Assembly: GCA_951406725.2 (NCBI GenBank)
Contig: OX597815.1
Location: 205,468,001 to 205,532,000 of the forward strand
DNA: 64,000 nucleotides
Direction of reading: 5' to 3'
Source of the DNA: Octopus vulgaris
Taxonomy: Eukaryota
Positions within the stretch are counted from its first letter, which is position 1; the number at the start of each line of letters is the position of its first letter. Below the pieces are notes generated by a model that had not been told where the DNA came from, searched no databases, and saw nothing but the letters and a program-made list of their open reading frames with translations. A program made the position numbers and the translations under genes. This document shows, one piece after another, positions 33,871 to 58,783 of this stretch.

Positions 33871-35560
33871 TATGTCAGGCAATGTAGGGAGATGTTATCC
33901 TCAATGGCTGGAGGAACAGTATCATCATCAACAGTTACAAAAGTGAAGGATTGGCTTTACAAAGAACTAACTTCAGGGACATCAAATTGATGAAAGCAGC
34001 AGAAAAAAATTACAGCAAAGTTAATTAGGAAGAGAATGAGCTTCGTTTAGATGTAGGATGAGGTAGCACCAAAGCTAAAAGAGACTTGTGAGTGAAGAGC
34101 AAGCCACAATACTTGACAGTTGCTGACCTTGTGAAAGCCTCTAACAGCGTACCGCATTCTGTAGTCTGGTAATCATATAAAAAAAAAACTACATGTTGAT
34201 GAAAGATGAGAAAAAGAGTTATACAAGCTGTGTACCGAGATTTTGCTAACACTGGTAAGTGTCCATCAAGTCTCAGTTCTCAACCCCCTCCTTTTTTGTT
34301 ATAGTTCTGTAGGCCATAGCTGGAATTTAAGTTTGGTTGGCTGCAACTTAAATCTCAAAGCTGAATTTGTTGAATGATTAGCAAGGAAATTCCAAATGTG
34401 GAAGAAGTAAAGCCTAAAATTGAGGCCTGAAAAGAAAAAAAAAAGAAGTAGCTATGTTAATAATTTTTGGTTAACTGGAAAGATAACAGGAGTCTAATGC
34501 AATCTGAGAAAGGGCAATGCTTGATATGCAGAAAGGAAAAACCCAGCATAAACTAAGGATGTACTAGAAGTGCAGAATATGAAGATAAGGCAAACTTCAT
34601 ACATAGCAAATGCAGGGTAGTTAACAGAACACTCATGAAATTAGTTACTTTAAATGCTTAGAAGGCTACATACAAGCCTGAAATTTGGTGGGAGATGGTG
34701 GCTACTTGATTGAATCAACCCCAGTGCTCGATTGGTACTTATTTTATTGACCCTGGAAAGATGAAAGGCAAAGTCAACCTCAGTGGAATTTGAACTCAGA
34801 ACTAGGGATAGACAAAATGGCACTAAACATTCTGTCCAGCAGCATGCTAACAATTCTGCCAGTCCTTTCTATCAAAGGCACAAGGCCTGAAATTTTGTGG
34901 GGATGGGGGGCTAGTCAATTATACTGACCCCAGTGTGTGGTGAGCTGGCATGGGCGGCGAGCTGGCAGACATGTTAGCACGCCGGTCGAAATGCTTAGTG
35001 GTATTTCGTCTGCCACTACGTTCTGAGTTCGAATTCCGCCGAGGTCGACTTTGCCTTTCATCCTTTCGGGGTCGATAAATAAAGTACCAGTTTTGCACTG
35101 GGGTCGACGTAATCGACTTAATCCCTTTGTCTGTCTTTGTTTGTCCCCTCTATGTTTAGCCCCTTGTAGGCAATAAAGAAATATATATTGCCCCCAGTGT
35201 TGAACTGGTGCTTATTTTATTGACCCTGGAAAGATGAAAGGCAAGTCAACCTCACTGGAATTTGAACCTAGAACATAAAGATGCAGAATAAATGCCATGA
35301 AGCATTTTGTCTGGTGTGCTAACTATTCTACCAGCTCATGCCTTTTATAATAATAATAATAATTATTATTATTATTATTATTATAATAAGCCAGTCTAAA
35401 TGTTTCTCTATGACAAAGATTGGATTTGTTTCAGTTTTATTTGTAATGAAATTCAAATGTATTTTTCACTTCAGCTGCATTTTGCCTATTTTTTTTTCCC
35501 CTCTCTTTTAAATACTTTCTTACACACATTTAACCTTATAACATTTACATTTCCTCACAG

Positions 35561-35607
35561 GGTCACCAAGGCTGTGTGAATTGTTTAGAATGGAATGATA
35601 AAGGAAC
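35561..35607 (+). CDS. WDTC1: WDTC1-like exon, start of WD40 repeat 1
   Basis: ctcacag|GGT...AC|gtgagt; encodes GHQGCVNCLEWNDKG(T); 47 nt, phase 0/2. Confidence 0.95.
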
Positions 35608-36107
35608 GTGAGTAATCTAAACTTTAATTTATCTTCTGTCTTCACATTTTCTGTTGTTCTTTGTCTCGCTGGTGATATTTTTGACCAACTGGCATTGCAT
35701 ATACATCATTAAATGAAAGCAAATATTTCGTTTCATTTTCGTCTTATTTTTTTTCGTTTTTTTTTCAATTTAAATATTCCCATTTGCAAGAATTTGATCC
35801 TGGAACTACAAACCACCAAAATGGATATCAAATTATTATTGTTAGTTTAGAAGTCTATCTTTACTTTTTTCGCATCTTTCTTTTTTTTTCTTTGTATCAT
35901 CTAATTGTAACTATAAATGTTCTATTCCTTGTCCAAATCATAGTACAGCACATGACATTTTACATGAAAAAAAAATGACATTTTATCTACTTATCTATTG
36001 TGACTCCATTTTAATGTTAAAACTTAAATTAGAAATTTTCTAAAAAAAATGTAATTAAAGTATATACTATAAAATTTTCTAAGTAAAGGTTCTCTTATAT
36101 ATATTGA

Positions 36108-36493
36108 CTAACAGTATCGCCTGGCGTTGCTCGGGTTTGTAAGGGAAATAACTATATAAGCATTTTTAGAGAGTTATAGCCAAAAAAATGCATTAAAAAT
36201 GGAAAAAAAAATTATGGTAAATTTTTTTAAATCGTTGACTCATCGTAGACATTTTTAGAGAGTTACTTCCCTTATATAATAGCGAAAAAATGCATTAAAA
36301 TGGAAAAAATGATGGTAAATTATTTTTAAAATCGTAGACTCATCATAGACGCGTGCTAATACCCAGAAGGGCTCGATATGAATCACGACTATAAGATACC
36401 CGCTTTTGGTTACACTGCACTGCAAAATGTGGGAGTAGTTAGGAATCTAAATCGTAGGAGACAGACACACAACTTGACTTTTATATATAAAGA
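36108..36493 (-). mobile_element. Non-autonomous Helitron, second subfamily
   Basis: Same 3' hairpin and end region as 25667-26050 but a different 5' half; sister copy at 40084-40481 with intact CTAG. Confidence 0.78.
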
Positions 36494-37042
36494 TATCACG
36501 GCTTAAAAGTAGAGGAAAGATAAAAACCTACAAAACTTGGAAGATAGCATTATATTGTGGTCTTATGTAAGGTATAATGGTTTAAATCTCCCTGTAAACT
36601 TAATAGAAAAATCACGAAATACATAATGTTTCTCTTTACTGGTTTGGTATTTTGTGTTAAGAAGGGTACCCAATTCTGAACTTAAGATTCACTTAAATAT
36701 CCAAATTTACAAAAGTATCAACCTATGATATCTTAGAAAATAAATGCATATGTGAAGTTCAGATACTAAATCGTTATCATCATTATCATTGCTGGTGTGG
36801 ACAACCCTTGCCAGTTGACCACACTAGTAAGGGTTGGATGGTTTGACCAGAGCTGGCAAGCTGGAGAAGCTGCACCAGGCTCCAGTCTGATTTGGCATGG
36901 TTCCTACAGCTGGATGCCCTTCCTAATGCCAACCACTTTACAGAGTGTGCTGGGTGCTTTTACATGGCACTAGATATTGTAAGGTTTTTTTTTTCCTTTC
37001 TTAATTTAGATTTATGCTATGGTCATAGTCAACTATGGATCT

Positions 37043-37453
37043 TGGTCTCAAGAATTTGTCTCAAGAATTTGTCTCAAGAATTCTCTAGAAAAACAACGAC
37101 GCCGTGGTGATCTCATTCTTGCTCACAACATCATAAGCAGAAAGTGTAACCTCTCGAAAGAGCTGTTCTTCACTCCTGCTCCAGAGCGTCGGCTGCGGGG
37201 TCATTCCAAAAAGCTCTATCTGCGACAATTTCATCTCAATCGAAGGAGAGGGGCTTTCTCCGTCCGGGTTGCGGATCTGTGGAATAAGCTGCCGGACGAG
37301 ATGGTGAAGATGCCGACGACCGCTCGGTTCAAAGTCTCCCTTGACCACAAGTGGCCTGAACTCTTTACATGAACACCACCCTGTACATAACTCCATGTCC
37401 CCCTACATGGCCTTGCTTTTTGCTTTTTGAGCCAAAAAATTAACTAACTAACT
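37043..37453 (+). mobile_element. CR1-clade LINE 3' fragment
   Basis: Near-identical, in reverse complement, to 24343-24715; (CTAA)n tail. Confidence 0.92.
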
Positions 37454-40400
37454 ACAGGATTGCTTAGGAGAATTATTCAAATATTTTGGCATTAGGAAGG
37501 GCATCCAGCTGTAGAAACTCTGCCAGATCAAGATTGGAGCCATCTGGTTCACCAGTCCTCAGTCAAATCGTCCAATCCATGCTAGCATGGAAAGCGGACA
37601 TTAAACGATGATGGTGATCCCAAAATTTATCTAGACCACTTTTTCTTGATCCATATTGATTTCTAAATCGAGATGATTACTTCTGTTGATTTTTATATAT
37701 TCTGTAATCTTTCTGAGTAAATAAGGTTTTTTGGATACATAACAAACTGAACAAATCTTTAAAGAATTTTATGTTGTTACTATAAACAAATCAGATGCTC
37801 ATTATTTTGATGAATATTCAATGTGTGCAAAACAAAAATCATCACTTCTTTAATTTGGCTGAGAAGACATTGATTGAACAGTTAAATACAGTATCTATGA
37901 GCGTAACTTGGCAGCATAAATTTCAAATTTGAAGTCTGCAATCCTAATTATCAATATGTAGTTCATTCAGAAGTACTTTGATAAATTATTAAAAAGTTAA
38001 AAATTTTTTTCTTATGCCTTTTACCTTTAACCCTTTCGTTACCGTATTTATTTTGAGATGCTCTGTGTTTCTTTCAATTACTTTAAATATAACAAAGAAA
38101 TTGGTAAAATAACTTAGTTATCATTAATCTAGTGTTATGAACATAAATCGTGACTAAGGTTTGGTGGAAGATTTTAATTGAAGCCTTAAGAAAACAAGAC
38201 ATTTGTACTACAGAGCCAGTTTCAGCTGGGTTGGTAACGAAAGGGTTAAAGTTAAGGAAAATAGCATTAAGACCTACTTTCATGATCACTGTATTATATA
38301 AGGCGGCGAGCTGGCAGAATCGGTAGCACGCCGGGCGAAATGCGTAACCATATTTCGTCTGCCGTTACGTTCTGAGTTCAAATTCCGCTGAGGTCGACTT
38401 TGCCTTTCATCCTTTTGGGGTCGATTAAATAAGCACCAGTTACGCACTGGGGTCGATGTAATCGACTTAATCCGTCTGTCTGTCCTTGTTTGTCCTTGTT
38501 TGTCCTCTCTGTGTTTAGCCCCTTGTGTGTAGTAAAGAAATACATATTAAATATACTTTGATGATGTAGTCTCATGATCAGTGAGTCTGGAGACTTCTAG
38601 GTTTACTATAAAATCACAGCTTTGAAATTGAAGCAATTGCTTCACGTTGCAAACTACATTTATCCCTTTGGACCATGTTCATCATGAAATCTGCAATCAA
38701 AATAAGTGATATTTATTTCTTACTTAAACACAAGACCACAAATTCATAAAATGGGTGATGTTATAACATTTGTACCTTTTGGGATTTTGGCATAGGGGAA
38801 GTAGAAAGACTTCAACTGGGAAAAAGTTGTTTGCAGGTTTGACAATGAGTATATTTGGTTGAATGTATCCTCATTATGTGTATTAACCCTTTCATTACCA
38901 TCCCGGCTGAAACCAGCTCTGGCTCTGAGTACAAATGTCTTGTTTTCATAAGTTTTGAATTAAATTTTCCACCAAACCTTAGTCACAATTTATGTTCCTA
39001 ACTCTAGCTGAATGATAACTATGTTATTTTACTAAATTCTTTGTTATATTTAAAGTAATTGAAAGAAACACAGAGCATCTCAACAGAAATACAGTAATGA
39101 AAGGGTTAAGGCTACTTTATCAACACCAGAAGGATGATAAAAAAAATTGTCAGCCTTGACAAGCTTAGAACATTATAAAATATTAAGTGAAACCCTCTAC
39201 ATTTTCTCTCAATTGCTCTGATTAATATGTAATATTAACTGAAATTTTTATTAAATGTATATAGAAGGAGTGGCTGTGTGGTAAGTAGCTTGCTTACCAA
39301 CCACATGGTTCCGGTTTCAGTCCCACTGCATGGCACCTTGGGCAAGTGTCTTCTACTATAGCCCCGGGCCGACCAATACCTTGTGAGTGGATTTGGTAGA
39401 CGGAAACTGAAAGAAGCCTGTCGTATATATGCATATGTATATATATGTATTTGTGTGTCTGTGTTTGTCTCCCTAGCATTGCTTGACAACCGATGCTGGT
39501 GTGCTTACGTCCCCGTCACTTAGCGGTTCGGCAAAAGAGACCGATAGAATAAGTACTGGGCTTACAAAAGAATAAGTCCCGGGGTCGAGTTGCTCGACTA
39601 AAGGCGGTGCTCCAGCATGGCCGTAGTCAAATGACTGAAACAAGTAAAAGAGAGAGTAAAGAGAATCAAATTTTATTGTTATTTCTCATATGTTAGTAAA
39701 TGTGTGTTGAAATATTTTGCTCTCCCAAAATGAATGTACATTAGAATTTTCTAGTTCTTCCGTCTCCTCTAAGCTTAAAATATAAACATTAAATGATGAG
39801 TGAATCATCAGTGCTTAGTCTTTGACTGAAACTTGTTGCAGTTATGCATTTGAGTAGCATTTTTCAATTTTACAAGTTTTGACTCATCTTTCTTGAATAA
39901 GTACAAGATCTTGAAAGGCTACAAAATGCAAGTGTTTTGTTTTTGGAAGGAAAGATTTTTTTTTTTCCTTATTCATGCTATGAAGCAAGTGTTAAGCTAC
40001 TGGTTATGTCAAGCCACCTCGATATATTTGTATTTCATTTATAACTCTAATCCTGTGTTTTAATAAATCATTGTTATTTTACACTAGCAGTATCGCCCGG
40101 CGTTGCTCGGGTTTGTAAGGGAAATAACTATATAAGCATTTTTAGAGAGTTATAGCCAAAAAATAGCAAAAAAATGCATTAAAAATGGAGAAAAAATGAT
40201 GGTAAATTTTTTTTAAATCGTAGACTCATCGTGGACATTTTTGAGAGAGTTACTTCCCTTATATAATAGCGAAAAAATGCATTAAAATGGAAAAAAATTA
40301 TGGTAAATTTTTTTTTAAATCGTAGACTCATCGTAGACGCGCGCTAATACCCAGAAGGGCTCGATATGAATCACGACTATAAGATACCCGGTTTTGGTTA

Positions 40401-43188
40401 AACTGCACCGCAAAATGTGGGAGTAGTTAGGAATCTAAATCGTAGGAGACAGACACACAACCTCTCTTTTATTGATAAAGATTACAATCTTTACTTTTTT
40501 TTTTACTCTTTTACTTGTTTCAACCATTTGACTGCGGCCATGCTGGAGCACCGCCTTTAATCGAGCAACTCGCCCCCTGGACTTATTCTTTTTGTAAGCC
40601 CAGTACTTATTCTATCGGTCTCTTTTGCCGAACCGCTAAGTAACAGGGACATAAACACACCAGCATCGGTTGTCAAGCAATGCTAGGGGGACAAACACAG
40701 ACACACAAACACACACACGCATATATACATATATACGACGGGCTTCTTTCAGTTTCCGTCTACCAAATCCACTCACAAGGCTTTGGTCGGCCCGAGGCTA
40801 TAGTAGAAGACACTTTCCCAAGATGCCACGCAGTGGGACTGAACCCGGAACCATGTGGTTGGTAAACAAGCTACTTACCACACAGCCACTCCTGCGCCTA
40901 TGTTTAAATGCTTGACTAAAGGTGGTGCTCCAGCATGGCCACAGTCAAATGACTGAAACAAGTAAAGAGAGTAGGATAAGTAGTTTGAAATTTGATTACT
41001 TCATTTAGAAATTAAATTGTGTGCTGGCTTGGCTACAGTCGGTTCTGTTGGACCTTGTGGTAGGTGACCAATTGAAGCACTTTGTGTTACATTGATGTAT
41101 TTTTGTTTCTCCCCCTCCCCTTTTTTTTTCTTGTTTTTCTTTTGTAAAATATATTCCTGTTCATATTTTGAATAAAAGATATATATCTAAAAAGAATTAC
41201 TTTTGATGTTGGCAAAAATTCCCTTGGGTAGCACACTACATTTCAAATTAAATATAACAATGTCTAGTCTTTGAAGACTCTAGATTCTTTTGAGTTATTA
41301 GATTACAGGCTTCTGAGATTCAATTTCTTGTATTATTAAGTATCAGAAAGTGAGCGGGTAGGAGAAACTCCTATATAAAAATGTATGCCCTCCTAAATTG
41401 GGGATAGAGGCCCCTTAGCTAAAAATAATATAGTTAAGCTTCAGATTGGACTCTAACAATGTACATATTGGAAGCAAGACATGAAACAAGAAAGAGTTCT
41501 ATAGAAATGCATTTCAAGAAAAAGCGTTTGTGAATGCACCCAGTGACCACAGTGTAATTACATAACTTATTTTCCTGCCATCTTCATCTTTCTATCAAAA
41601 AATACCAAAAAAAAAAAAATAAAGAAATGTTCATAATTTTTTGATCAAAATAGTTAGCAGTAAGCACATCCTTGAGATAAGGTCCATTATCTGTTGAGAT
41701 GCTTACTTGTTAGAGGTTAGTGTAATTCTTTTTCTTTTTTTTTTCTTTTTGTTTGGATAACCTTATTTGTAATGAGAATGCTTGTAGTAAAGATAATGGT
41801 TGTAGCAAATGAACAATAGGCACAGGAGTGGCTGTGTGGTAAGTAGCTTGTTTACCAACCACATGGTTCCGGGTTCAGCCCCATTGCATGGCTCCTTGGG
41901 CAAGTGTCTTCTACTATAGCCTCAGGCCGACCAAAGCCTTGTGAGTGGATTTGGTAGACGGAAACTGAAAGAAGCCCGTCGTATATATGTATATATATGT
42001 ATATGTGTGTGTGCATGTATGTTTGTGTTTGTTCCCCTAGCATTGCTAGACAACCGATGCTAGAGTGTTTATGTCCCTGTTACTTAGCGGTTCGGCAAAA
42101 GAGACCGATAGAATAAGTACTGGGCTTACAAAAGAATAAGTCCCGGGGTTGAGTTGCTCGACTAAAAGGCGGTGCTCCAGCATGGCCGCAGTCAAATGAC
42201 TGAAACAAGTAAAAGAGTAAAAGCTCAAGCAAGAAAGGAGGTGAGGAAGAACCTTTAGCTCTGTTGACAGTAGAGGTTTCTCTATCTCTGTAAACTGCAT
42301 GAAGTCTGATGCTGTTTGAATGTAAGATATGGATACTGAGTGTATCGAGAAGATATCTGAAGTGAAATGAGATATTAGGTATGTAAAATTAACTTGCCGT
42401 AAACGAGGAGCATAAATACTCAGAGTAGCTGAGCGATAAAGCATCAACTGATGTGTGAAGGAAAGATAACTATGTGGTTATATGGATATGTGATGTGAAC
42501 GGAGGGTGAGTACAGTGTACTGATAATGGTGAGTATCTGCAGCTCGGGGAAACACAAGGTTGATAGTGAGGTCAGCTCTCAGAATGATGAAGATTACAAG
42601 AATAATGATGCGAGATTGAGATGTGTGCTGATGTGCCATACTGCTGACCCATTCAACCCGTGCCAGTCTGTGGAGGACAAGCATTGTAATCAATGACGAT
42701 TCTGTTTTGTTTTTTTTTTTGCATATAGGCGCAGGAGTGGCTGTGTGGTAAGTAGCTTGCTAACCAACCACATGGTTCCGGGTTCAGTCCCACGGCATGG
42801 CATCTTGGACAAGTGTCTTCTGCTATAGCCCCGGGCCGGCCAATGCCTTGTGAGTGGATTTGGTAGACGGAAACTGAAAGAAGCCTGTCGTATATATGTA
42901 TATATATATATATATGTGTGTATTTGTGTGTCTGTGTTTGTCCCCCTAGCATTGCTTGACAACCGATGCTGGTGTGTCTACGTCCCCGTCACCTAGCGGT
43001 CCGGCAAAAGAGACCGATAAAATAAGTACTGGGCTTACAAAGAATAAGTCCCGGGGTCGATTTGATCGACTAAAGGCGGTGCTCCAGCATGGCCGCAGTC
43101 AAATGACTGAAACGAGTAAAAGAGTAAAAAGAGTAATCTCTGTGATGTCCTAGTTTCTTTGATGTTTGAGATGGTTCTTCTGTTTTAG

Positions 43189-43300
43189 GTTATTGGCAAG
43201 TGGATCTGATGATGTTCAAATTATTGTGTGGAATCCATTCCGTCATAAGCGCTTAACCACAATCAGGACAGGACATCAAGGGAATATATTTTCTTTGAAG
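43189..43300 (+). CDS. WDTC1: WDTC1-like exon (WD40)
   Basis: ttttag|G...AAG|gtatt; encodes LLASGSDDVQIIVWNPFRHKRLTTIRTGHQGNIFSLK; phase 2/0. Confidence 0.95.
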
Positions 43301-44502
43301 GTATTTTATATTTTCATTTGACTCCAATGGATGTTTTCATGATATTGTTTGTTGTAGCATTGGTTGAAGTGAAGAAGGTGTTGATGATGATGATGGTGGT
43401 GGTATTGGTGGCAGCGACAAAATTTGGCAGATGTAGTGGCAGCTGCTGTGGTAGAATTATCATTGTTATTGTTTAGCCTCAATCAAGTAGTTCTGTGTTC
43501 AGAGACAACCCAGTCTTGACCATCTTGTCTTTTTCTATATTCAGATTACATTTGCTCTGCATTTTTCTTTAAGATGTTTTTTGTATGATCTGGTTGCTGT
43601 CTCTAGCAGGTCAAGAATTCTCCCTTGTTGGCTATCCCCAAACACATTCTAGCCATGACTATCCTGTTTTAATTTCAGGAATAATGTAGCCTGGATTACA
43701 TTATTCAATGTGTTCAATTTTTAAAGATGGCAGTGTGGGGCTTGAAAGAGATTTGGCTGCTATTTTTAGCAGCTTGATAAAACATATAAAAGTGTCGGTG
43801 GTGGTGCTGGTGGAGGTGGTGGTGCTGTGTTGTGATATCCGTCTCAGTATAGTAACAATAGGAGTGGTTGTTATGACGAAGACCTATTTTTGATTGTCCG
43901 TTTAATGAATCTCCTCTTTATAAACCACTGCATCAATTCCATCTTGTTGAACTGTTCTGATAGTTGTTATGGTTTAACCCCAAATCAATCATGATGAAGC
44001 AGACTTACAATCAAAAGCAATTCCAGCTGTGACCATTATTGTCGTTTTAGGGGTATCAAGAACAACATGATCTAATTTGTCCATTATCTTTGAAAACTGG
44101 AAAGCTGCTTTTGGAAGTGGGATTTGGCTGCTATTTCTAGTTGGCCAAGTAACTGCATAGGGACTTCTCCAGTGGCTGATGGTAACAATAGTGAAAATAG
44201 TAGGCAGCAACAGTAACAATGGTTTTATATTTAAAGTTGGCGACTACAATAAAAGGAAAAAAAAACTGCATTTGGTATTGTCTGTGTTTTTATAAATGTT
44301 ATTATCTACTAGCTAATGCAGTTACTATATTTATATTACGAATACAAAAGGATTAACACATCCACCCACGACCACACAGGATTTTGATGCTGCACTTGCT
44401 ATGGATACAATCGTGGATGCCTGGTTAAGAAGCTTGCTTTGCAACCTCAAAGTTCAAGCCCTGATATTACTGAGTGATACTTTGTGAAAGTGTTCTCTGT
44501 CT

Positions 44503-44805
44503 TCATCATCATCATTGTTCGACCGTGGTCGAGACAATGGAATTTACCATGCTACGCCAGACTTCACGGTCCATGATGGCATTACGGAGGTCCTGTTGCT
44601 GGATGCCTGTATCCCTGGAGAGTGTGCGCCCTCTGGTATTGCGAGTAGATGGCTTCCAGAGGAGAAGAGTAGAAATTACTTCTTTCTCAGCTCTACAACA
44701 ATGTCCAGCAAACTGGACTCTCCTACCTTTCACAAGAGATGACACAGGTGGTAGTTTCCCATATATTTGCATTTTGGTTGGATGGTGCTTCCACGAGAGA
44801 TTTTG
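44503..44805 (-). mobile_element. RTE-like LINE 3' end (second family)
   Basis: QIYGKLPPVSSLVKGRRVQFAGHCCRAEKE..LLLWKP followed by a (TGA)n tail; shorter copy at 13205-13330 (+). Confidence 0.75.
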
Positions 44806-47767
44806 AGCTCTCTGTCATAGCCTCAGGTTGATTGAAACCTTTTCATTAAAATTTGATTGTCAGTCACTCTTTGGAAGCTCATTGGCCCTTTGGCTCAGAC
44901 CTAAGGGTTGTATTTCTATACATGCGTCTGTGTGTACGAGATGGAAAGGATCAGTTTGTCAAACAAAATTACCAAGCAGTATTCTGTTTTGCCCCTTTGC
45001 ACCCAGGTCAGCTTTGCCTTTCTTCCTTTACTAGGTTAATAAAATAAGTAACGGACAAAGTAATGGGAGTTGGGGAAGTGATGTAAGTATATAAGGCATG
45101 CCCCAACATGACTGCAGTCCGGTTATTGAAACAACTAAATAAAATAATAAGATAATATCTAGTAAGTAATCGGCATCATTGAACACTGACAATCGTATGT
45201 TTTTCCAGCTTCTATAAATGAAGCCAATTGCAGCGTGGAAGGTGTTTGTAAGCCATTTAAGAAACACACAAAAACCGTTAGATTCACTTCAACATTTGAA
45301 CTTAATTTGTCAAAATATTTTCGTCGCTTTGAGACCGCGACCTGTTCACTGACAAAATTCTCTGTGTTTCTTAAATGGCTTATAAACACCTTCCCACGCT
45401 GCAATTGTTTTCGTTCCAGCACATGATCTCAGATCAGGTCACTTGCTATGCAAGTACATATCTGTAATATAAATGAAGCATACCAGGCATATTTTAGAAG
45501 TATCTCTCCAAATCTATAACTCCAATGGATATTTCATAAAAAAAAAGTCTGTGTCTTGAGCTGACAATCGCATTACAGTGCAGCTCATTCCAGCTTCCAA
45601 GATATTTTCAAACAACAATATAGGCAGTGGTATGGCTGTATGGTTAGGGAACTCATTTTGCAACTATGTGGTTTTCAGTTTAGTCCCACTGCATGGCACC
45701 TTGACGAAGTGTCTTCTACTATAGATTTGGGTTGATCAATACCTTGTGAGTAGATTTGGTACGTGCAAACTGTGTGGAAGTTCATTGTGCATGTGTGTGT
45801 GTGTGTGAATGGTTACATGTTTATGTATTTGTGTCTGTTTATCAAACACCCGCATACCCACCACTTGAGTTGACAACCAGTATTGGTTTGTTTACATCCT
45901 CGTAACTTAGTGGTTTGACCTAAGAGACTGATAGAACAAGTATTAGCATTATTAAAAAAAAAAAAAAAACAAATTATTAGGGGTGATTTGTTTGACTAAA
46001 TCCCTTCAAAGTGTTGTCCCACATGGCTGCAGTCCAATGATTGAAACAAGTAAAAGATAAAAGAGAACTAAAAGTATAAGACTTATCATTGAACAGGAGA
46101 TCAGCCCCTCACACACTTAACTCCAGCTTCTTCTACTGGTTCTCATTTTTAGCTTTTCGAGAACACATGTTACCCCATCTGTGAATTGGATCCACTAACT
46201 AACAATTGTAAGGCAATACTTTGCCACACTCCTTTACTAGCTGTTAACCATAGTTAGCATAAATGATTTCCATCTATCATGTATTAATTGATTAGCAAGA
46301 TTCAGAAACATATGATTGGTTCAGTCTTTATAGACGGTTTGACTGAGGGCTGGCAAGCCAGAAGGCTGCACCGGGCTCCAGTCCAAACTGGCAAAGTTTC
46401 TACAGCTGGATGCCCTTTCTAATGCCAATCACTCCAAGAGTGTAGTGGGCAAATTTTATGTACCACCGGCACAAGGGCCAGTCAGGCGGTACTGGCATCG
46501 ACCACGCTTGAATGGTGCTTTTTATGTGCCACCGACATGAGAGCCAGTCAGGCAGCACTAGCAACAACCACGCTCGAATGGTGCTTTTTACCTGCCCTTC
46601 ATATAATGTTGAAAATCTAGCCAGTGGTCAGTTTTTTTTCAAGTGTAGACCCTAATGTTGGGAAATGTATTTTGTTACTTCACTGTGAAAGAAATTATCT
46701 CTGGTGATCTGTCTAGAAACTGAGGTTGGGGGTAAGCAAGGGCATGTTCCCCATAGAAAATCCAGCTCCAAAATAAGCCTCATGATAGCAAGGGAGAATG
46801 GGTACCAGCCAGCCAGCCCAAAGGTTGGGGTGGGCTGCTTCTGTGTCTGCCTCAGTTACAATGACATTGAGGTAGATCCAGCCACCCCTGTTAATGGAGA
46901 CCAAAACCCAGATATATGAGTGTGTGTATATATATATATATCTCTTCTCTCTATATATAAACGGCAGTTTGTCTGTGTGCGTGTCTGTGTGTCTGTCAGG
47001 TTGTACCCTCGCCCTGACCACGGCTTTCAACCGATTCTGATGAAACTTGACACACACATAGCCCAATGTCATAATTCAAAACTAACGCAGCGAAAATTTT
47101 GAAAAGTTAACCCCAGTTCTGAAAAAAATCGATAAATTCGACATGGGGTCGAGAATAAAAAAAAACAAACCACAGACTGTCTAGGGGACGCAACTCAACC
47201 TTTTTTTACTCTCAAAAAAAAATTTACCATAATTTTTTTTCCATTTTTTTGCTATTTTTTGGCTATAACTCTCTAAAAATGCTTTATAGTTATTTCCCTT
47301 ACAAACCTGAGCAACGCCGGGCGATACTGCTAGTATATATATATATATATAGGCGCAGGAGTGGCTGTGTGGTAAGTAGCTTGCTAACCAACCACATGGT
47401 TCTGGGTTCAGTCCCACTGCGTGGCATCTTGGGCAAGTGTCTTCTGCTATAGCCCCGGGTCGACCAATGCCTTGTGAGTGGATTTGGTAGACGGAAACTG
47501 AAAGAAGCCTGTCGTATATATGTATGTGTGTTTGTGTGTCTGTGTTTGCCCCCCTAGCATTGCTTGAAAACCGATGCTGGTGTGTTTACGTCCCCGTCAC
47601 TTAGTGGTTCGGCAAAAGAGACCGATAGAATAAGTACTGGGCTTACAAAGAATAAGTCCCAGGGTCGATTTGCTCAACTAAAGGCGGTGCTCCAGCATGG
47701 CCGCAGTCAAAATGACTGAAACAAGTAAAAGAGTAATCATTTGTCTATGGATTTTCTTTGTTTTCAG

Positions 47768-47955
47768 TTTCTTCCCAACTCTAATGATTCGATAATTGTG
47801 AGTGGAGCAGCTGACTGCAAGATCCGAGTCCATGATGTAAATATTCAGGAAACCACACATGTATTTGGCTGCCATGCAGGCCGTGTGAAGCGACTAGCTA
47901 CTGCTCCGAATGTTCCGTTTATGTTCTGGAGTGCTGCAGAAGATGGCACTATCAT
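47768..47955 (+). CDS. WDTC1: WDTC1-like exon (WD40)
   Basis: ttttcag|TTT...AT|gtaag; encodes FLPNSNDSIIVSGAADCKIRVHD...HAGRVKRLATAPNVPFMFWSAAEDGTI; phase 0/2. Confidence 0.96.
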
Positions 47956-49539
47956 GTAAGAAAATTCCTTTAATTTCGAAAGATTTTAAAACTTGTTTCT
48001 ATTTTTAACTGATCATGTTGCTATAGGGGAGTCCAGTTGACCGTTTCTCTCAAGTATTGTATAGTCTTGGTCAGGACTATCAAATTTGGGTGTTGTGAAA
48101 AGAGGTTAGTCCTTTAGTATTTAAACTGGACACATCAGGCCCCAATATTCTACTTGTTTTTTTGTTCAAACTGGCCAAATCTAGCCTCTCACTCCTACCC
48201 TGCAATGTCATTTTGAAAATCTCAAAGCTACAAAAATCATCAAAATCTCAAAGCTACAAGATAACGTGTGTGTTTAGTAACCAAATGTCGTAAGTGCCAT
48301 CCCAGCCATTTTCAAGATTAATATAACATTTTCTTTGTCTCAACATCTAGAATCAAAAAAGTTGGGAGGAAGAACCAGTGAAGCTTGCAATAAGTTAAAA
48401 AATCTGGCTGAAAAAATTGTACCTCTATGCTATTGACATGATGCTCACTCACCCAAACTCAGACCAGAGAGTTTAGTAACACACCATCGTAAGCACACTC
48501 ACTCAATGAATAACTCCAGTGTGGTCCCTGTATCGTTTTACGAGGTGTTATGGCTCATTACCATCATAATGATAATGGGCTATTATCTTACTATCTTGTC
48601 TTACTTACCTCTTAAAGATACTTACCTTGGTATATTAAAACACAAACAATACCTTTGTGGGGTCTCTGTATATTTTTTACTAGGTATTATGGTTAAAATA
48701 TGCAATGCAATACACTGTTTTGTAGTACCGGTATATTCTGCAAAATGAGAAAGACGCAGTCATTGTTTCATCTTTCAGATGCATACCTAAATAAATAATT
48801 ATACGTAGGTGGAATGACTAGAGGAGGTCTTCGCGGTCATTTTAAGACCAAAACCAGCTTCCTAACTTAATTCCTTGCCGAGATATCGCATTCTGAATGT
48901 TGTGAAACTTTGACTGCATTTTTCTTGGTTTTTAAGTTGTGCTGCTTACGATGGTCTATTACTAAACGCCTCATTTAACAGAGTAATCTGAATGCTAAAA
49001 GGTAAAACCTATTGTTTCTGGCTGGTCTCTTTGACTCTTTTGATACCAACCCGTTTGAGGCTTCGTGGACTGGTTCTCTGATAAAAAGACAGTGTACAAG
49101 TAATGTGTAAAGTATTAAATCTCATCATCATTGTTTTTACTTTCCCATGTGTCCACTTTACCATGCTTGCATGGATCAGATGAAATTCATTAAGACAGAT
49201 TTTCTATGGTTGCATACCCTTCTTGTTGGCATTTGTAATCCAGGCAAGGTAGCGTTTCCATATGGTTAAACATGTTTTTATTGAAAGACTGGAAACAAGG
49301 GATACCACTTGCATGATGGTGACATTCATTTATAACTAACTACAGCGTGATCTCAAGACAAAGGAACACAAATACCCTCACATACAGCCATGCAGACACA
49401 GACAGACAAGCACACACAGACACAATAAGTTACTTTCACTTTCGCTTTACGTAATTATATAATTTATTTTTGCTGCTCTCATTTTTTTTTTTTTTTTATT
49501 GGCTGTTCTCATTCGTTGCTTTTCTCAATATCCTAACAG

Positions 49540-49764
49540 GCAATTTGATCTGCGAACTCCAATTATCTGTGATAGCACACCCCAGAATGTTTTAATCAAT
49601 CTTAATGCACATATGGGACTTCATGCTGAAGCAAAGTGCATTGCTATCAATCCTTTACGGCCAGATGAGATGGCAGTTGGAGCTAATGATCCTTACGTTC
49701 GGGTGTATGACAGAAGAATGTTGTCATGCAAAAGTATCAAATTTCCTACTGATAATGGATCACG
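49540..49764 (+). CDS. WDTC1: WDTC1-like exon (WD40)
   Basis: ctaacag|G...CG|gtaag; encodes QFDLRTP...EAKCIAINPLRPDEMAVGANDPYVRVYDRRM; phase 2/2. Confidence 0.96.
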
Positions 49765-51071
49765 GTAAGTTGAGTGACCTCAGTGTGTCAAATTCGTATT
49801 TTTTCTTATATTGTAACATATTTATAATCAACTGGATTTTACTCTGTCTTTATTTACAACTAGATTCAGTAACTATAAATATTAAACTGTTAAGCTTTAT
49901 GATAAATCTCGGGTCTGTTATTTGCATTGGTCTGTGCGGGTATTAACTTGCATATTCTCTGCATAGTCGGTTTTTCCATTTTGTATTCTTTTAAAAAAAA
50001 CAAAAGCTGGCCTACTTTACAAATCAGGAGTGTCCATTAGAGCAGTGCCTATCTCTGTTTCCCTAACACTAATCCAATGATAAGTGTGTTTTTCTTGGAT
50101 TGTAACATTAGTTTATCTGGGTAACTTTCTCTCCGGGAGTTAGCACACAGTCTTATCTATGTGAACTAAGATACTTTGAATAAAAAATATCCTGCCCACC
50201 AGAAATAAAGAATTCTAAAACCTGTGATGGATTTGATCTTATAACATAGGAGCTGATAGTTTCGTTACCTTACTCACTGGGCCATTTAACATCACAATAA
50301 ATTTATTATAGATTAACACATTCTTTGCTCATATTTTAATAAAACAAATAAACTTTATATTTTAGTTTTAAAAAGTTTTCAAGCTTTGAGGCCATGGTGA
50401 CTTTTGTTATGTTTTAACCTCTTTCTTACTAATGAATATTTGTAAATTAGATAGTATAGATTTGTGTGATTACAACTCTTTTTTTTTTTTTATCTATTTT
50501 TACTCAGTTTTTTTTCTTGCTTTTTTTTTTTTGATGTCAAATATAATTTGTATTCAAAAGTACATCCGCCAATTTGCACTAAATATTTTGTAAAACATTG
50601 AGCAGTAACCTTCAAATTTGGATTATATGGTGTTCTACATAAATTCTGTTTAAAACTATTCAACTCTCAGATTCTCTTTTTCTAAAATTTCAAAGACAAA
50701 ATTCTATTAAGGTTTTTTTCCATAAATTTTGGAAGATGTTTTTATTTTTTTACCTTCTTGATCAGTATTTATACACACCGTCAAGAATAATAATAATGAT
50801 AATTTTTTCAGATCTTTAAATTCAGCTTTAGGGATGCTATTTTTTTTATATATATCTACATCTACACTGTTTCAATTGGTTTGGTCTGTGATCATCACCA
50901 GATGCCTCACTCTAGGATGTGTAAATAGAAACAAAGGTTTCTAATTTGAATCCAGCTTAAATTTAACATCTCTATTCATTTTCTAAATATTATAAAGCAA
51001 GAATCAACTCTGATATTTTTCTATTCCTTGCTTTAGTTTCATAACCCTATTTTGATCCTCTCTCTTACTAG

Positions 51072-51160
51072 GTTACAATGGGATAGCCCTGTGACTCCAC
51101 CCAGCTTAAGGGAAGAGGACTACAACTTACATTCGGGCTGTGTACAATACTTTGTTGCAG
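51072..51160 (+). CDS. WDTC1: WDTC1-like alternative exon A (89 nt)
   Basis: cttactag|G...GCAG|gtataa; encodes LQWDSPVTPPSLREEDYNLHSGCVQYFVAG; phase 2/1 fits both neighbouring exons; resembles recalled LPDGAAQYYVAG. Confidence 0.88.
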
Positions 51161-51193
51161 GTATAAATCTGTTTGTTTTAATTGTTCTTCTAG

Positions 51194-51282
51194 GTCATTT
51201 GAGGACACTCTGTCTCTGATGCGGTCTGCGTACAGTGCGGAGTTCCCTATGCCTCAAGGCTGTGTTAAGTTCTACATAGCAG
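51194..51282 (+). CDS. WDTC1: WDTC1-like alternative exon B (89 nt, mutually exclusive with A)
   Basis: ttcttctag|G...GCAG|gtaata; encodes SFEDTLSLMRSAYSAEFPMPQGCVKFYIAG; same length and phase as exon A, with a homologous C-terminal half. Confidence 0.82.
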
Positions 51283-52889
51283 GTAATACAACTGCAATTA
51301 ATGCCTGCAACTGTCTAATGGTGTTACTTCAACTCATTGCACACAATTCTCATTATGTATCTGCTCTCTTTAGATTTCTTAATTGGTTTAAAGAAGCACA
51401 TCCAAAGTCTTTTTAACCTTTCACTTTTGGAATTGAAATGGCAATCAATGCTCTGTGTTTTATAATTAGGTTTGCATGTATCCCATTTATAAAATATCTC
51501 CTTTGAATTAAAATAACACAACAGCATTTACATCACATGGCATTGAAGAATAATTCTATTTTAATTATATCAGCAAATATTCATGTTTGGAAAAATTCTA
51601 AAATATACAGTAGGAGATTTTAAGCCAGTAATTTCTTATCCTTGATTTTACAAAACCAAAAAGCAACAATGATTTTGAAATGAATTACAGCTCATTAATA
51701 GCTGTGATTTTTCCAATTACAATCGCAATTTATCTTTAAACCAATTAAATGTTTGTCTTACTTTGTAAAATATTGCTGCATATTTTACATTGGTTATATT
51801 AGAAAATGTTGTATTATTGGAATATAATTCAGTTTTAATGTGTGTTTGCCCGAACATTAGCTAAATTATGTAAATTCATCTTGGCTATAATGGTAAACCA
51901 TTTATTCTGCCTCCGCAGTTACATTTTCACTCAGTCTGCTTCCATCATTGCTTACCGACTTCCCCCCTCTCTGATAAATTAAAGCTGTTATAAATATTAT
52001 AGCCCTTATTTTTTTTATTATTTATTCATACTGAAATGAATTTTCGTCAATGATTTAAATCTCACATGTGATAATCTTGCACGGATAAAAGAATCTTGAC
52101 TCTAAACAGAACTAAAGTGGCTGTCAAGTTATTGATGAAGCAGGTAGTACACTGTTGAGGTTAAAAGTTGAGGTGAAGCATGCAGGCATAAGTAATTTGA
52201 TAAGAAAGGGAATGCAACATCAGTGTAATGTAGTTGAAAACCGTTATTCGTTGGTAAGAGAGAAAGAAATGTAGTTTTGTCTAGTGTTGGTCTTGGGGTC
52301 CAGCCAGTGTGCCGTCATCCCCAGGTAGGATCTGTTATGGGCCAACCAACAGTCCATAGGTTTGTCCACTTTGATTTTTAAATTGTTCTTTCCAAAAGTA
52401 TTATATTCTATTGTTGTTTGTCTGTATATACATATGAGAGATGGATGTTGTATCTATAGGTGGTAGGTCTGTGAGTTTTGTATGATGGGGCTGCGGTTGA
52501 GGAGCTTTTAATGCAGCTGCTTGTACAGATTTTAATCTGTGTGTTGTGGGAGAAGGGTATGTTACCTTGGAAATAAGAGTTATTTGTTCATACCAAAGCA
52601 ATTTTGAAAATAAGGACTGAATATTTACTGATGGTGAAACTCAACTCAATACTAAGAGCAGAGTAAAATTTATTTTAATATTACATTCAACTGGCTCTTG
52701 TAGTTTTGCTTAGCATTTTATTCAGCCACTGGATAAATATACCGTCCAAGTGAAATTTGAAATCAGTGAGATGGCAGAAACATAAGCGTGCCAAGCAAAA
52801 TGCTCAGCAATATTTTTCTTCAGTTCAAATTCTAAGTTCACCGAGGTCAACTTTGCCTTTCATCCTTTCAGAGTCAACAAAGTAAGTAG

Positions 52890-53465
52890 TATTGGGGACC
52901 ACCAGCCTCCTCTTCAACACGTCTAAAATGCTGTCTGTCACCACTGTGCTGTGGCAGACAGGCATGCAGATTCCACAGCCACTGTGCCTTAGACATGGCC
53001 TTCCTGTAGGCCGACTTGAATGAAGTGCTATCAAGAACCTTGTTGGCATCCATAGAGGCTACCAAGTTGAAAGTATGGGCCGTGCACTTCTTGGTCAGGA
53101 CTATCGCCCACATCCTCAGCCTCGGGATCCATGTCTAGGTCCACATCCTTGCTGTTCTCCACATCTGGATCAGCAGCAGCCTCAGGAATGTCTGTACCAA
53201 ACTCCATAAATTCCTTAACAAAGTTTTTGCTGTTACCCATCCTGGTCACCTTGACATGCAATTGGAACTTGTAATGAGTGTCCACCTTGACCTGGGTGAG
53301 AACATCTAAGGTGTGATGTCCTCTGAGCCAAGAGCAGGCCAGGATGGCGTGTTGTCTAATGTTGGTCTTGGGGTCCAGCCAGTGTGCCATCATCCCCAGG
53401 TAGGATCTGTTATGGGCCAACCAACAGTCAGCAGTGGTCACCATCCAGAAGATATCCTTGAGCAA
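52890..53465 (-). mobile_element. hAT (Ac/ZBED-like) transposase fragment
   Basis: TTADCW..HNRSYLGMMAHWLD..ILACSWLRGHHT and CTAHTFNLVA (CxxH motif), frameshifted. Confidence 0.85.
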
Positions 53466-54286
53466 TCTGTAATATCAAGGTGGATTGCAGCAATTTAAAA
53501 CCAACAAGGAAATAATTCACTGTCACTAAGAGTGACAAAGGTTCATTGCTAGAAATAGGAACCCTAGTCTCCTTAGCCACAAAGCACATGGTCTCTTTGT
53601 ATTGACAGGAGAGAAAACCCTACCCGCTGTGAACAAGATGCATTAGATTAGCATGCCAATTTTGTATAGGAAATGAATACTTATCAATAATGCTTACTCC
53701 ATCACAACTGATAGAGGCCAACTCACCCTGTCAGTATTATGGAGAATGTCATTGGAATCGATGACTGATTTCACTAAATGGTAATGTGAAAATTATAAAA
53801 TAATCAAGGTGGCTAGCAGAAATTTAAAACCAACAGGGAAATAACTCACCATCACTATATATAAACTGACGAAGGGTATGATCAAGGCCTACTAAAAAAA
53901 TAGAAACTAACCTCTCATCCACATCTCCATGCAAGCTGTAATGGTTTTTGTGAGTACATGGTTTGTACAATTTTTTGTGGGTAGGAAGGAGGCAGGACAT
54001 TTGATAGCAATGTCTTATAACCATATTTTTGTTTATAGAAACCGCACATATTGTAGTTTAACATTTACTAGGCTCTCTTTTACTCTTTTACTTGTTTCAG
54101 TCATTTGACTGCGGCCATGCTGGAGCACCGCCTTTAGTCGAGCAACTCGACCCCGGGACTTATTCTTTTTGTAAGCCCAGTACTTATTCTATCGGTCTCT
54201 TTTTGCCAAACCGCTAAGTGACGGGGACGTAAACACACCAGCATCGGTTGTCAAGCAATGCTAGGGGAACAAACACAGACACACAT

Positions 54287-54317
<31 letters not shown>

Positions 54318-55225
54318 CATATATACGACAGGCTTCTTTCAGTTTCCGTCTACCAAATCCACTCACAAGGCATTGGTCAGCCCGGGGCTATAGCAGAAGA
54401 CACTTGCCCAAGATGCCACGCAGTGGGACTGAACCAGGAACCATGTGGTTGGTTAGCAAGCTACTTACCACACAGCCACTCCTGCACCTATTTGTTACTA
54501 GGCTGTTCTAAATTCATGGAAATATTGCTTATAATTCAAAGCCATGCTATCAAACTTTTGAAAATAGTGACACTACCTTGATAGGTGATGCGTTGGTTGG
54601 CGGTGGTGGGAGGGATGAATAACCAAGAAGAGAGAGATGGAATGATGGTCAGAATTTGATAAGTTCAGAACTTAAGGTTCGTTTATTCGTTATTTCATTA
54701 AAGACTGCATCAACCCTAGTACCTAAGTATCAACCAGGTATTGGGGTCAGTGTAAACGAGTTAACTCTTTATCACATTATAATTACATTAATAATGCTTG
54801 CGGAGCTAATTGGTTTCAGCTTTGTGCTGCAAGAGAAGTTTATTTTCATGAAACAGCTTTAATTTTGAGTAGGCTGCACATTTCTCCAGTTGACTCTCCC
54901 TAAATCTGCTTCATATTAAGCTTGTTAGGTTAGATATAAAACACCTGTTTTCTACCTGTGCACATATGTATTTGCATATGTCAGTTTGTGATTATATATT
55001 ATGTATTTATGTATGTGCGTGTGTGTTTACATATGTATGTGTTTGTGTGTATGTGTGTGTATATATATATGAATCCTCATGCACACACTTGCGACTGAAT
55101 GTATGTATTTGTACATATGTATGTGTATATGTGCACACATACACACACACACAGGGCTTGCATATATCTGTTTTTGTTTGTGTGTGTGTGTAAGTATGTC
55201 TAATGTCCAATCAATTTTATTTCAG

Positions 55226-55429
55226 GCCACTTACCTCAGAAACAGATGGACTACCGTAAGCGGTATCGCACCCTTGCCTCCACCTATGTCACATATAGTC
55301 CAGATGGCTCTGAGCTGTTGGTTAACCTGGGGGGTGAACAAATTTATTTGTTTGATGTAAATAAAAAAAGAAAACCACAAAAGTTTGACACGTCTTTGGT
55401 ACTAGGTAATGCAAATGGCATAGTAAAAG
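55226..55429 (+). CDS. WDTC1: WDTC1-like exon (WD40)
   Basis: tttcag|GC...AAG|gtaag; encodes HLPQKQMDYRKRYRTLASTYVTYSPDGSELLVNLGGEQIYLFD...; phase 1/1. Confidence 0.96.
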
Positions 55430-56407
55430 GTAAGTTTCTTTTTCTTTTTTTTTTTTCACATAGTTTTAACCTGTAACAAGTTCAATCTCTATTTTTCATT
55501 AGCTACTCGTGTTGATTATTCCTAAAATTCATGTTTTTTTCCCTGATAAATGATTCTTAAATAGATATTTTGTATTAGATTTTCAAAGATTTTTAGCTTA
55601 AAACAAAACCCATTACCATCACCACCTTTATTTCAAATACTGTTTTACCATTCCAGAACTACCTGGAAAGGTTTGTAGTTCAGGATCTCCCCTATAGTTC
55701 TTAATCTTATGTAATCTTGTTTATGAGACTCGACAGAACCAGATGGACTACCGTAAGCAGTATCGCACCCTTGCCTCCACCGCCTTGCCTCCAAATCTAT
55801 CTCACCACCTCCTTCCATATTTTCCTTAGCCTGTGACCATAATGGTTACTTTTTACCATCAACCCACAATGCTTTTTCCATTGACATGCATAAGCTGTTG
55901 TAATTGTGTATCCACACCATTGAAGCTGGGGGGTTTTTTTGTGTTATTGTTACTCATTAGCATATACCTTCAGTGCTTGACCACTTTCTCAACTCACTTC
56001 AGCTCAAACCTTTGGTGTAAATTAGTATTGTACATTCAACACACTACAACCAGCTCATAGGCAATTGGTTGAGGTATTAGAGCATAGGATAGATTGCCTT
56101 GCAGTCTTTTCTCTGGCTCTCCCTCTGCTCTGAGTTTCAATTACTACCAAGTTGAACTTTGCACTTCATTCTTATGGAAACAATAAAGTACCAGTCTTCT
56201 ACTGGAATCTATTCTTCTCCTTCTGTCTCATTTTTTCTTTCTGTTTGTCTGTCTCTTTAGATATAAAAATACCTATCATATGCCTTATGTCACAGCTTCA
56301 TCAAGGATTGAGGGCCTAAAGACAAGGCAATCAGCTCATATGTCTTCAGTCGGTGACCATCTCCTTTCTCTGCTTTCCATGTTTGTCTACCATACAACAT
56401 CACATTA

Positions 56408-56456
56408 CTTACATGTACTCTTACATGTACTCTTACACGTACTCTTACATGTACTT
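56408..56456 (+). repeat. 12-bp tandem repeat, about 4 copies
   Basis: (TTACATGTACTC)n. Confidence 0.85.
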
Positions 56457-57254
56457 CATATGATCTGCTTTTGTGAAATATTGAAACAGGCTCTTCTTGA
56501 GTAGTCTTCTTTTTTTTGTTAGTTTTCTTATTAACCAGTATTTAAAGATTTTTTAGCCTTTTCTGTGTTTGTCTTTAGCCTTTTGACCCCAACACACTCG
56601 TCCACATTTTGAACTTTTTTCTGGGTTCTTGAAGGGATTCTACAACGAGGATCATGTCATAAATATCCAACAGTTTCCAGCTCCTCTAAAGCTTGTTTTA
56701 AGTATATTTAATTCCTACATATTCTTTTACTCTTTCACTTGTTTCAGCTTGAGGGCTGTGGCCATACTGGGGCACCACCATTGGTGCTGTTACATCTTCA
56801 TTTCCTCTTTTAATTGTTGGCATTTGGTGAATGAGGGAGTTTGATGTTGCTGCCCTCATCCGTGTTTCCTGCCATGAAGTTGGTTCATCTAGGGCTCTTG
56901 ACAGTAAGAGATCCACTTCTGGTTTGAAGAACTATGGGCCCTTGAATCCTAAACTATTGCAGTATTTGGTCCTTTGATAGCAAGTCTGATATCTTTAGCA
57001 CTATACACTGATACCCTGATGTTAGTATAAATTTTATTGCCAAAGTTTGGGACAATCTTAAATGAAACAGCAATACATAATTTCAGAATCTTGAAATAGT
57101 ATTCCACTGTTTCTAAAATGTACATTCCTGGACGGCTACAAAGGTGTTGTTGTTTAAATGTTTTGCGGGTTTTTATATGATGTAGACTAATTGTTTCAAT
57201 TAACAGTGTTTTGTTATGCTTTCTTTTCATCTTCCTTGTTTGCGATTCCAACAG

Positions 57255-57423
57255 AAGCAACTCTATCAACTAATGGCTTCAGTGTACCACATCGAGCAGG
57301 TACAAATGGAGTTACAACACCAATGGTGCCAAAATCTAGTAGATCAACATCTCCTTCTTCCTCAACAACTTCATTACAAGCAGAAGATGATCCTGAAAAG
57401 TTTAAATGTAGGATTGGGAAAAG
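57255..57423 (+). CDS. WDTC1: WDTC1-like exon (Ser/Thr-rich linker)
   Basis: ccaacag|AA...AG|gtaga; encodes ATLSTNGFSVPHRAGTNGV...KCRIGK; phase 1/2 bridges the flanking exons; the STNG/TNGV motif resembles the vertebrate linker. Confidence 0.85.
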
Positions 57424-57660
57424 GTAGATACGATGTATTCTCCTTTTGTTCTTTTTTGTTTTTTTTTTTTTGTTTTTTTTTTTCCATTTCATAAAATGCG
57501 TTGAAATATAGATACATTGTATCTATATTGTATATGAATGTACACACATGTGCATGCACATGCATACATGTGTGCACACACACACAGGTAAACAGACAGA
57601 CCTAAATATAAATACATAGACAACAAACTCATGCAAGTGTATAACCATACATATACTTAC

Positions 57661-58048
57661 TGGAAGCACTCCGTCGGTTACGACGACGAGGGTTCCGGGT
57701 GATCCGATCAACGGAACAGCCTGCTCGTGAAATTAACGTGTAAGTGGCTGAGCACTCCACAGACACGTGTACCCTTAACGTAGTTCTCGGGGGATATTCA
57801 GCGTGACACAGAGAGTGACAAGGCCAGCCCCTTTGAAATACAGGTACAACAGAAACAGGAAGTAAGAGTGAGAGAAAGTTGTGGTGAAAGAGTACAGCAG
57901 GGATCACCACCATCCCCTGCCGGAGCCTCGTGGAGCATTTTTGGTGTTTTCGCTCAATAAACACTCACAACGCCCGGTCTGGGAATCGAAACCGCGATCC
58001 TATGACCACGAGTCCGCTGCCCTAACCACTGGGCCATTGCGCCTCCAC
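57661..58048 (-). mobile_element. Full-length tRNA-derived SINE
   Basis: Minus-strand head TGGAGGCGCAATGGCCCAGTGGTTAGGG...GGTTTCGATTCCC with A and B boxes. Confidence 0.88.
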
Positions 58049-58600
58049 TTCATATACTTACACACACGCACACACAAACAAACGAACATACATATAGAGG
58101 ATGGTAAGTGGTGACATGGAGGAAGAAGGAAAAGATAAAGAAGTAGAAGGAGAAGGAGAAGTGGAACTTTATCCTACTCATTAATGACATGGCTTGCAGC
58201 ATTACATCATCATTATCATTGTTTAACATCTGTTTTCCGCGCTAGCACGGGTTGGACGGTTCGACCGGGGTCTGAGAAGCCAGGAGGCTGCAGTAGGCTT
58301 CAGTCTGATCTGGCAGTGTTTCTACAGCTGGATGCCCTTCCTAACTCCCTGAGTGTAGTGGGTACATATATTATATAAATGCTTATACACACATACACAA
58401 TGAATTTCTATTAGTTTCTGCCAACCAGATCAATTGACAGGGCTTTGTTAGGCTTGGGACTATAGGGGCTTTAAACATACAAACAAGAAAAAGGTTTATA
58501 TCATTGTGTTTGTCAAATTATCACCTTTCTGACTACTGTTACATATGTTTTTTTTTTCCTTTTGTTTAATCTGAAATCAACAGTATTTTCCCTTTTATAG

Positions 58601-58783
58601 GTATAAACGAGATACCAAACGTTTGTCACCTCCAGTGGAAGCTCTTAAGAAGAAAGCCAACAATTATTTTGAAAAAGACCAATGTAGGAAAGCCATTATT
58701 TTATATAACCAAGCGATTTCAATGATGCCTCATGCTTCAGTTCTCTACGGCAACAGAGCTGCAGCATATATGAAGCGAAAATG
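58601..58783 (+). CDS. WDTC1: WDTC1-like exon (TPR)
   Basis: ttttatag|G...TG|gtaaat; encodes ...LKKKANNYF...AIILYNQAISMMPHASVLYGNRAAAYMKRKW, the WDTC1 TPR signature. The gene continues beyond the window. Confidence 0.97.

Follow-up and report, generated by a model that had tools for sequence, protein, structure and literature searches.

Two adjacent exons of equal length and phase in an Octopus vulgaris gene raise the questions of whether they are spliced as alternatives, what would keep them apart in the transcript, how old the pair is, and what the choice between them changes in the protein. The exons lie in a 64,000-nt stretch of the genome (GenBank assembly GCA_951406725.2, contig OX597815.1, positions 205,468,001 to 205,532,000 of the forward strand; hereafter the window), and the octopus positions given below are window positions on the + strand. 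Published work is cited from excerpts of the papers named. The reading that we hold to be probable is that octopus WDTC1 contains an either-or exon pair whose members are spliced singly, that the pair goes back to one duplication before molluscs split from other lophotrochozoans, and that the exclusion has two layers.

The constitutive exon upstream of the pair (49540..49764; WDTC1 residues 162-236; donor phase 2) carries two WDxR-like motifs, FDLR and YDRR. It is identical to the corresponding part of WD and tetratricopeptide repeats protein 1 of O. vulgaris and O. bimaculoides, matching P0001 and P0121 exactly. Exact mapping of the peptides P0001, P0121 and P0123 placed residues 18-451 on coding exons spanning 29454..58783, namely 29454-29537, 35561-35607, 43189-43300, 47768-47955, 49540-49764, exon A or exon B, 55226-55429, 57255-57423 and 58601-58783. 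The constitutive exon downstream of the pair (55226..55429) was mapped in the same way and encodes residues 267-333, with acceptor phase 1. The octopus protein is WDTC1/DCAF9 (adipose), with WD40 and TPR architecture, as judged by the exact match to named proteins and by the structural model described below; the earlier note on this DNA had named the gene correctly. WDTC1 is a conserved ubiquitin-ligase receptor linked to fat storage in flies and mammals, and the mammalian protein binds DDB1-CUL4 and recruits substrates (PMC10483223).

Three further features of the locus should be mentioned. An alternative C-terminus is recorded for octopus WDTC1 as well (P0123 and P0124; 714 versus 719 residues); it is encoded by exons past 58783, and one species has it annotated together with A, another with B. 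A 48-nt partial copy of the downstream exon (55237-55284) lies in the next intron at 55734-55781; it is identical at 46 of 48 positions and has no flanking splice sites. Finally, an 87-bp tandem array occupies 20044-21915 (21.5 copies, 98% matches) and is open for more than 600 codons in one frame on each strand, and the weak Pfam matches found there derive from the repeat.

Exon A (51072..51160) and exon B (51194..51282) are each 89 nt long, encode residues 237-265, have phase 2/1, are preceded by AG and are followed by GT. The spacer between them (51161..51193) measures 33 nt and contains the donor of A as well as the pyrimidine tract and acceptor of B, with candidate branch points at 51167 and 51181. 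This anatomy agrees with what the earlier note had described, and so does the computed frame. Either exon alone preserves the reading frame, a transcript that skips both meets a stop 31 nt into the downstream exon, and a transcript containing both, with or without the spacer, meets a stop inside B, 66 nt short of its end. Since both of these stops sit 5' of later junctions, nonsense-mediated decay is expected for the two aberrant forms, as it is for transcripts with such stops in general.

Segments of 89 nt between an AG and a GT occur 16 times in 49765-55225; the frame stays open through four of these, and likeness to the exon is confined to A and B. When the 2,966 six-frame pieces of the window were scored with a profile of 96 orthologous peptides from outside the cephalopods, A reached 36.4 bits and B 22.3 bits, with the next best piece at 5.3 bits. 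Together with strand 260-263, which appears in the structural models of both forms, these scores show that A and B encode the same protein region. The earlier note had called the two peptides homologous, and the orthologue profile, which finds only A and B, upholds this; their direct likeness, however, is low, with 35 of 89 nucleotides and 6 of 29 residues identical (the latter mostly near the end) and a BLOSUM score of 25 (shuffle p 2e-5), compared with 22 for the best unrelated 29-mer in the window. The homology of A and B therefore rests mainly on the orthologues. The stretch holding the pair was found once in the 2.8-Gb genome, with no match to a second copy elsewhere.

Both forms were present in automated annotations, which we took as database entries. 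In Octopus, P0001 carries A (isoform X1) and P0121 carries B (isoform X2), and in Sepia pharaonis both forms map to a single contig (P0125 with A, P0126 with B). The two forms are annotated in O. vulgaris, O. bimaculoides and S. pharaonis, the annotated B forms being P0121, P0122, P0124 and P0126, of which P0122 is from Argonauta. Among the 13 long cephalopod proteins listed, none contained both exons or neither.

Evidence from RNA came from assembled contigs of three of 14 probable RNA runs (X1, X4 and X8, whose RNA status was guessed) and one DNA run. Such contigs drop rare forms and give neither expression levels nor tissues, stretches that they leave uncovered carry no weight, and as the aligned stretch stopped short of the downstream exon, junctions to that exon were read from loose contig ends. 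The earlier note had named four junctions as a check. The joint of the upstream exon to A (49764>51072) was found in 3/3 runs, and so was the end leading from A to the downstream exon (51160>55226), where the loose ends match the start of the exon at 55226. The end leading from B to the downstream exon (51282>55226) was found in one of the three (X4), at a depth of 4 versus 16.3 for the A contig, and the joint of the upstream exon to B (49764>51194) in none of the three sets of contigs. No contig of these three runs joined A to B. X4 also yielded a 91-nt contig that spans exon B and extends a single base beyond it at either end; such a piece would be expected if the assembly graph branched on both sides of the exon, and it is indirect evidence for B. 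A, whose joints appear in all three runs and which each of the six long Logan proteins in the Sepia cluster contains, looks to be the major form, and B, whose end appears in one run, is apparently the minor one. We consider it very likely that the octopus WDTC1 pair is real, with both exons in use.

The pair reaches far beyond cephalopods, a point that the earlier note had missed. In the deep-sea gastropod Gigantopelta aegis both forms are annotated, X2 being A-like and X1 B-like. Three of the 30 protein clusters looked up (Octopus, Sepia and Gigantopelta) showed both forms and the other 27 showed one form among their listed members; for the two largest clusters, 15 of 40 members were listed. 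A further 145 representatives at 50% identity included 30 that matched the exon profile, none of them twice, and a query with the B region (residues 232-271) returned no candidate, a result that is uninformative on B since the cluster representatives carry A. The upstream exon was used to search metagenome contigs and turned up 68 loci; at 25 of them the two flanking exons are both present, with more than 250 nt between them. A pair was found in one of these 25 (locus L002), a single exon in 23 and no candidate exon in one; by protein likeness, 20 of the single-exon loci come from one group of related animals, one is clam-like and two are termite-like. Arthropod WDTC1 loci and clusters examined had one exon or one form at the blade-4 position. 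In clam-type WDTC1 (P0042, P0043, P0046 and P0082; L031, 1509-1567) the exon is single and much shorter, measuring 59 nt in L031, and the variable first half of the loop is lost from it.

At L002, an A-like exon (A') is followed by a B-like exon (B'), each 92 nt long with phase 2/1, in the same order as in octopus and 253 nt apart. The frame outcomes are the same as for the octopus pair, and the reading frames of both exons are kept in Sepia and Gigantopelta as well as at L002, a check on related species that the earlier note had called for. In a tree of 447 columns, with L002 represented without its variable exon, the molluscs formed a clade (98/95) that did not include this locus, which grouped weakly with Owenia, Lingula and nemerteans. 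The donor following B reads GTAATACA in octopus (51283-51290) and GTAACACA in L002 (6246-6253 of that contig), and the A donors are weaker in both. Judging from these sites, the stronger donor of B is possibly a retained asymmetry.

How A and B are kept apart may be considered in two layers. In the steric layer, the branch point and pyrimidine tract of B would lie almost on the donor of A, so that the two exons could not be joined. A motif scan placed the candidate branch points of B 7 and 21 nt from the donor of A, and a further one falls within exon A, which would be excluded too if that site were used; as the whole spacer is 33 nt, the distance from donor to branch point is necessarily below 50 nt. 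In the frame layer, transcripts with both exons or with neither would hit an early stop and be removed by nonsense-mediated decay. The octopus exons would then be spliced singly, mostly A, with B as a minor form. Steric exclusion, as proposed in the earlier note, is on this site geometry quite likely to block A-B joining in octopus, but it cannot be the general rule for the pair, because the L002 spacer of 253 nt has ordinary branch-point candidates at -24, -37 and -50. The frame layer would be common to octopus and L002, and the steric layer, missing in L002, was likely gained in the cephalopod line, although spacer length is known in two lineages only and the direction of change is unproven.

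Two other mechanisms found no support. The donors GTAAGT, GTATAA and GTAATA are of the major type and none has the U12 consensus, which speaks against U2/U12 incompatibility. Competing RNA duplexes of the docking-site/selector (Dscam) type were sought over 300 nt per side, and the best 30-nt duplexes in six region pairs were no better than chance pairing, since 13-24 of 25 shuffles did as well. Regulatory elements in the roughly 200 nt 3' of B (51283..51482), another suggestion of the earlier note, are weakly indicated at best. This flank is free of simple repeats, as had been stated, but it is not special in that respect, as Tandem Repeats Finder reported no repeat anywhere between 50533 and 54074. 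One related organism (DNA run X20) showed 22 changes per 612 nt over 50810-51421, compared with 48/650, 15/161, 17/257 and 19/224 in neighbouring pieces; this somewhat higher conservation says little for the intron flanks because part of the low count belongs to the exons. A single TGCATG, presumably an RBFOX motif, lies about 190 nt 3' of B (51473-51478) and may be a chance occurrence.

Against this reading of the octopus pair, exon B might be a relic or splicing noise that yields no useful protein. Its spliced form was seen in one of three runs at the low depth given above, unspliced sequence at B was present in X4 and X8, and the long Logan proteins of Sepia all carry A. We nevertheless regard this as very improbable, as B is better conserved between Octopus and Sepia (25/29 residues) than A (23/29), its first 18 residues being unchanged, and it has retained its length, phase and splice sites. 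These residues fall in variable columns: at positions 240-254 the most frequent residue occurs in 16-49% of 86 animals. In addition, a B-like exon is the sole recorded form in chiton, Lingula and Tubulanus. A different objection concerns the mechanism: frame shift, nonsense-mediated decay and regulatory proteins alone might exclude joint use, with the 33-nt spacer spliceable and its shortness incidental. The early stops shared by octopus and L002 and the long spacer of L002, with its ordinary branch-point candidates, fit this proposal, and we found no minimum intron size for octopus in the literature searched. The spacer, however, is shorter than the minimum intron of about 40 nt in C. elegans, where excision of the 14-nt and 30-nt spacers was never observed in the material excerpted (PMC4165533), and shorter than the donor-to-branch-point distance of less than 50 nt used as a criterion for human exon clusters (PMC5740500; PMC7969005). 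The other eight mapped introns of octopus WDTC1 each exceed 1,100 nt. Exclusion by frame alone is therefore, in our judgement, rather improbable, and we continue with the two-layer reading.

The age of the pair was assessed from exon scores and trees. The patchy distribution (three of 30 clusters and one of 25 loci) would also suit independent duplications, one among coleoids, one in a line of gastropods and one in that of L002, the likeness among species then arising because one copy stayed ancestral-like and the other drifted. Against this, the scores were 64 for octopus A with Gigantopelta A and 56 for octopus B with Gigantopelta B, versus 27 for A with B in octopus and 44 in Gigantopelta, and like-type scores across species exceeded A-B scores within species throughout, except for the ambiguous B' of L002, which is about equally close to A types and B types over its full length. 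A precedes B in both genomic cases. In an exon tree of 30 columns, weak for that reason, the A types of coleoids, gastropods, Lamellibrachia and L002 formed one clade (97/98), a group picked after viewing scores on the same data, and the B-like forms included those of chiton, Lingula and Tubulanus. In the AU test, p was 0.004 for three independent duplications and 0.018 for a mollusc-only clade, and both are rejected; a duplication in coleoids separate from one in gastropods (p 0.055) and a grouping of coleoid A and B alone (p 0.097) were not rejected, and the SH test retained every hypothesis (p 0.06-0.17). We consider independent duplications unlikely, and a single old origin with later losses rather likely on these comparisons. 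A and B would then descend from the duplication of one exon, an event that predates the separation of molluscs and other lophotrochozoans.

The protein models suggest what the exon choice may change. AlphaFold2 predicted a seven-blade propeller with a helical-repeat insertion for both forms (mean pLDDT 78.7 for A and 80.0 for B). The top structural match was DCAF8 in its DDB1 complex (Z 42.4, rmsd 2.8, 373 aligned residues), and DCAF5 was also a fold match. In the models, the exon accounts for the latter half of the loop that follows strand 214-218 and for strand 260-263, and we assign these to blade 4, as its C-D loop and its outer strand. The earlier note had spoken of a WD40-propeller loop; part of a loop is indeed encoded, but the outer strand had been missed. 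This strand is predicted alike in both forms. The preceding loop is proline-rich and predicted to be disordered in A (pLDDT below 50 at 233-244), and in B a helix is predicted at 238-250 with low confidence (pLDDT 63-66) that is absent from the A model. The two forms would thus keep the outer strand of blade 4 and differ in the loop before it, disordered in A and helical in B. A role for the SP/TP motifs, which the earlier note had pointed out in A and not in B, is not supported, as decapod-type A has IPVIHP where octopus A has these motifs.

In WD40 propellers the bottom face carries the C-D loops, and the loop in question follows YDRR. The segment of human WDTC1 between residues 242 and 343 presumably starts roughly within the exon-encoded region, to go by the residue numbering and a vertebrate-like fragment (P0332). 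That segment is required for strong TRiC/CCT binding (PMC10483223), and WDxR motifs are DDB1 contact sites (PMC7457511). Because the loop adjoins a WDxR-like motif, we favour an effect on DDB1/CUL4 docking, folding or a side-face partner over one on the top-face substrate pocket, although on the models such tuning by the switch is no better than a tentative proposal.

More speculatively, the splice switch may give one CRL4 receptor gene two propeller surfaces, one floppy and one helical, beside a DDB1-docking motif, so that tissues could retune ligase assembly or substrate range; most snails would have kept only A and other lines only B, and cephalopods would have kept both and hardened the choice as their spacer shrank to 33 nt. 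We hold this as a possibility with the odds against it. The switch would then be more than 500 million years old, and a change of exclusion mechanism could be traced within one orthologous pair. Natural alternative loops retained across phyla point to a functional surface so far unstudied, and spacers of 33 nt in octopus and 253 nt in L002 within one orthologous pair make the evolution of exclusion mechanisms testable.

The pair belongs to a known kind of splicing, that of homologous mutually exclusive exons, which are common: 629 human clusters are reported, 57 of them with possible steric interference (PMC5740500). The earlier note knew of no description of such exons in this gene, and we too found no paper on the WDTC1 blade-4 pair in the literature searched, with subscription journals mostly outside reach; both octopus forms, however, were already in automated annotations, unremarked. 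What is new is that the annotated isoforms are read as one old pair, that the pair extends beyond molluscs and that its spacers differ in length. Human WDTC1 itself has a mutually exclusive candidate, exon cluster 176 in the supplement of PMC5740500, but this involves a 47-nt exon of the first WD repeat, equivalent to octopus 35561-35607 and unrelated to the blade-4 pair, and a 32-nt intronic candidate without clear likeness to that exon.

The closest parallels in arrangement are egl-15 5B/5A and let-2 9/10 of C. elegans, tandem homologous exons with spacers of 14 and 30 nt, below about 40 nt as in octopus (PMC4165533). Joint inclusion was not seen in the C. elegans steric pairs as excerpted, just as no A-B joint was seen in the octopus contigs. 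The exons of five C. elegans clusters have lengths of 3n, whereas those of the octopus pair are 3n+2, which adds the frame-shift layer, and the 253-nt spacer sets L002 apart from the C. elegans pairs (PMC4165533). Exons 4a/4b of OGDH are likewise an old pair with restricted intron size, and their branch point lies near the upstream donor, under a threshold of about 50 nt, like the octopus candidates; the OGDH intron is longer, with a distant branch point and a long pyrimidine tract, whereas the entire octopus intron measures 33 nt and its branch points are candidates (PMC7969005). In evolutionary history, the pair resembles the exon clusters of lophotrochozoan muscle myosin heavy chain, with an early protostome or annelid-mollusc origin and branchwise loss as suggested here, although that gene encodes a motor protein and has many clusters, and WDTC1 encodes a ubiquitin-ligase receptor and has one pair (PMC3912159). 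In structure, the octopus protein, known from its model, shares with DCAF8 in complex with DDB1 (9u7t) a seven-blade propeller, inserted helical repeats and two WDxR-like motifs.
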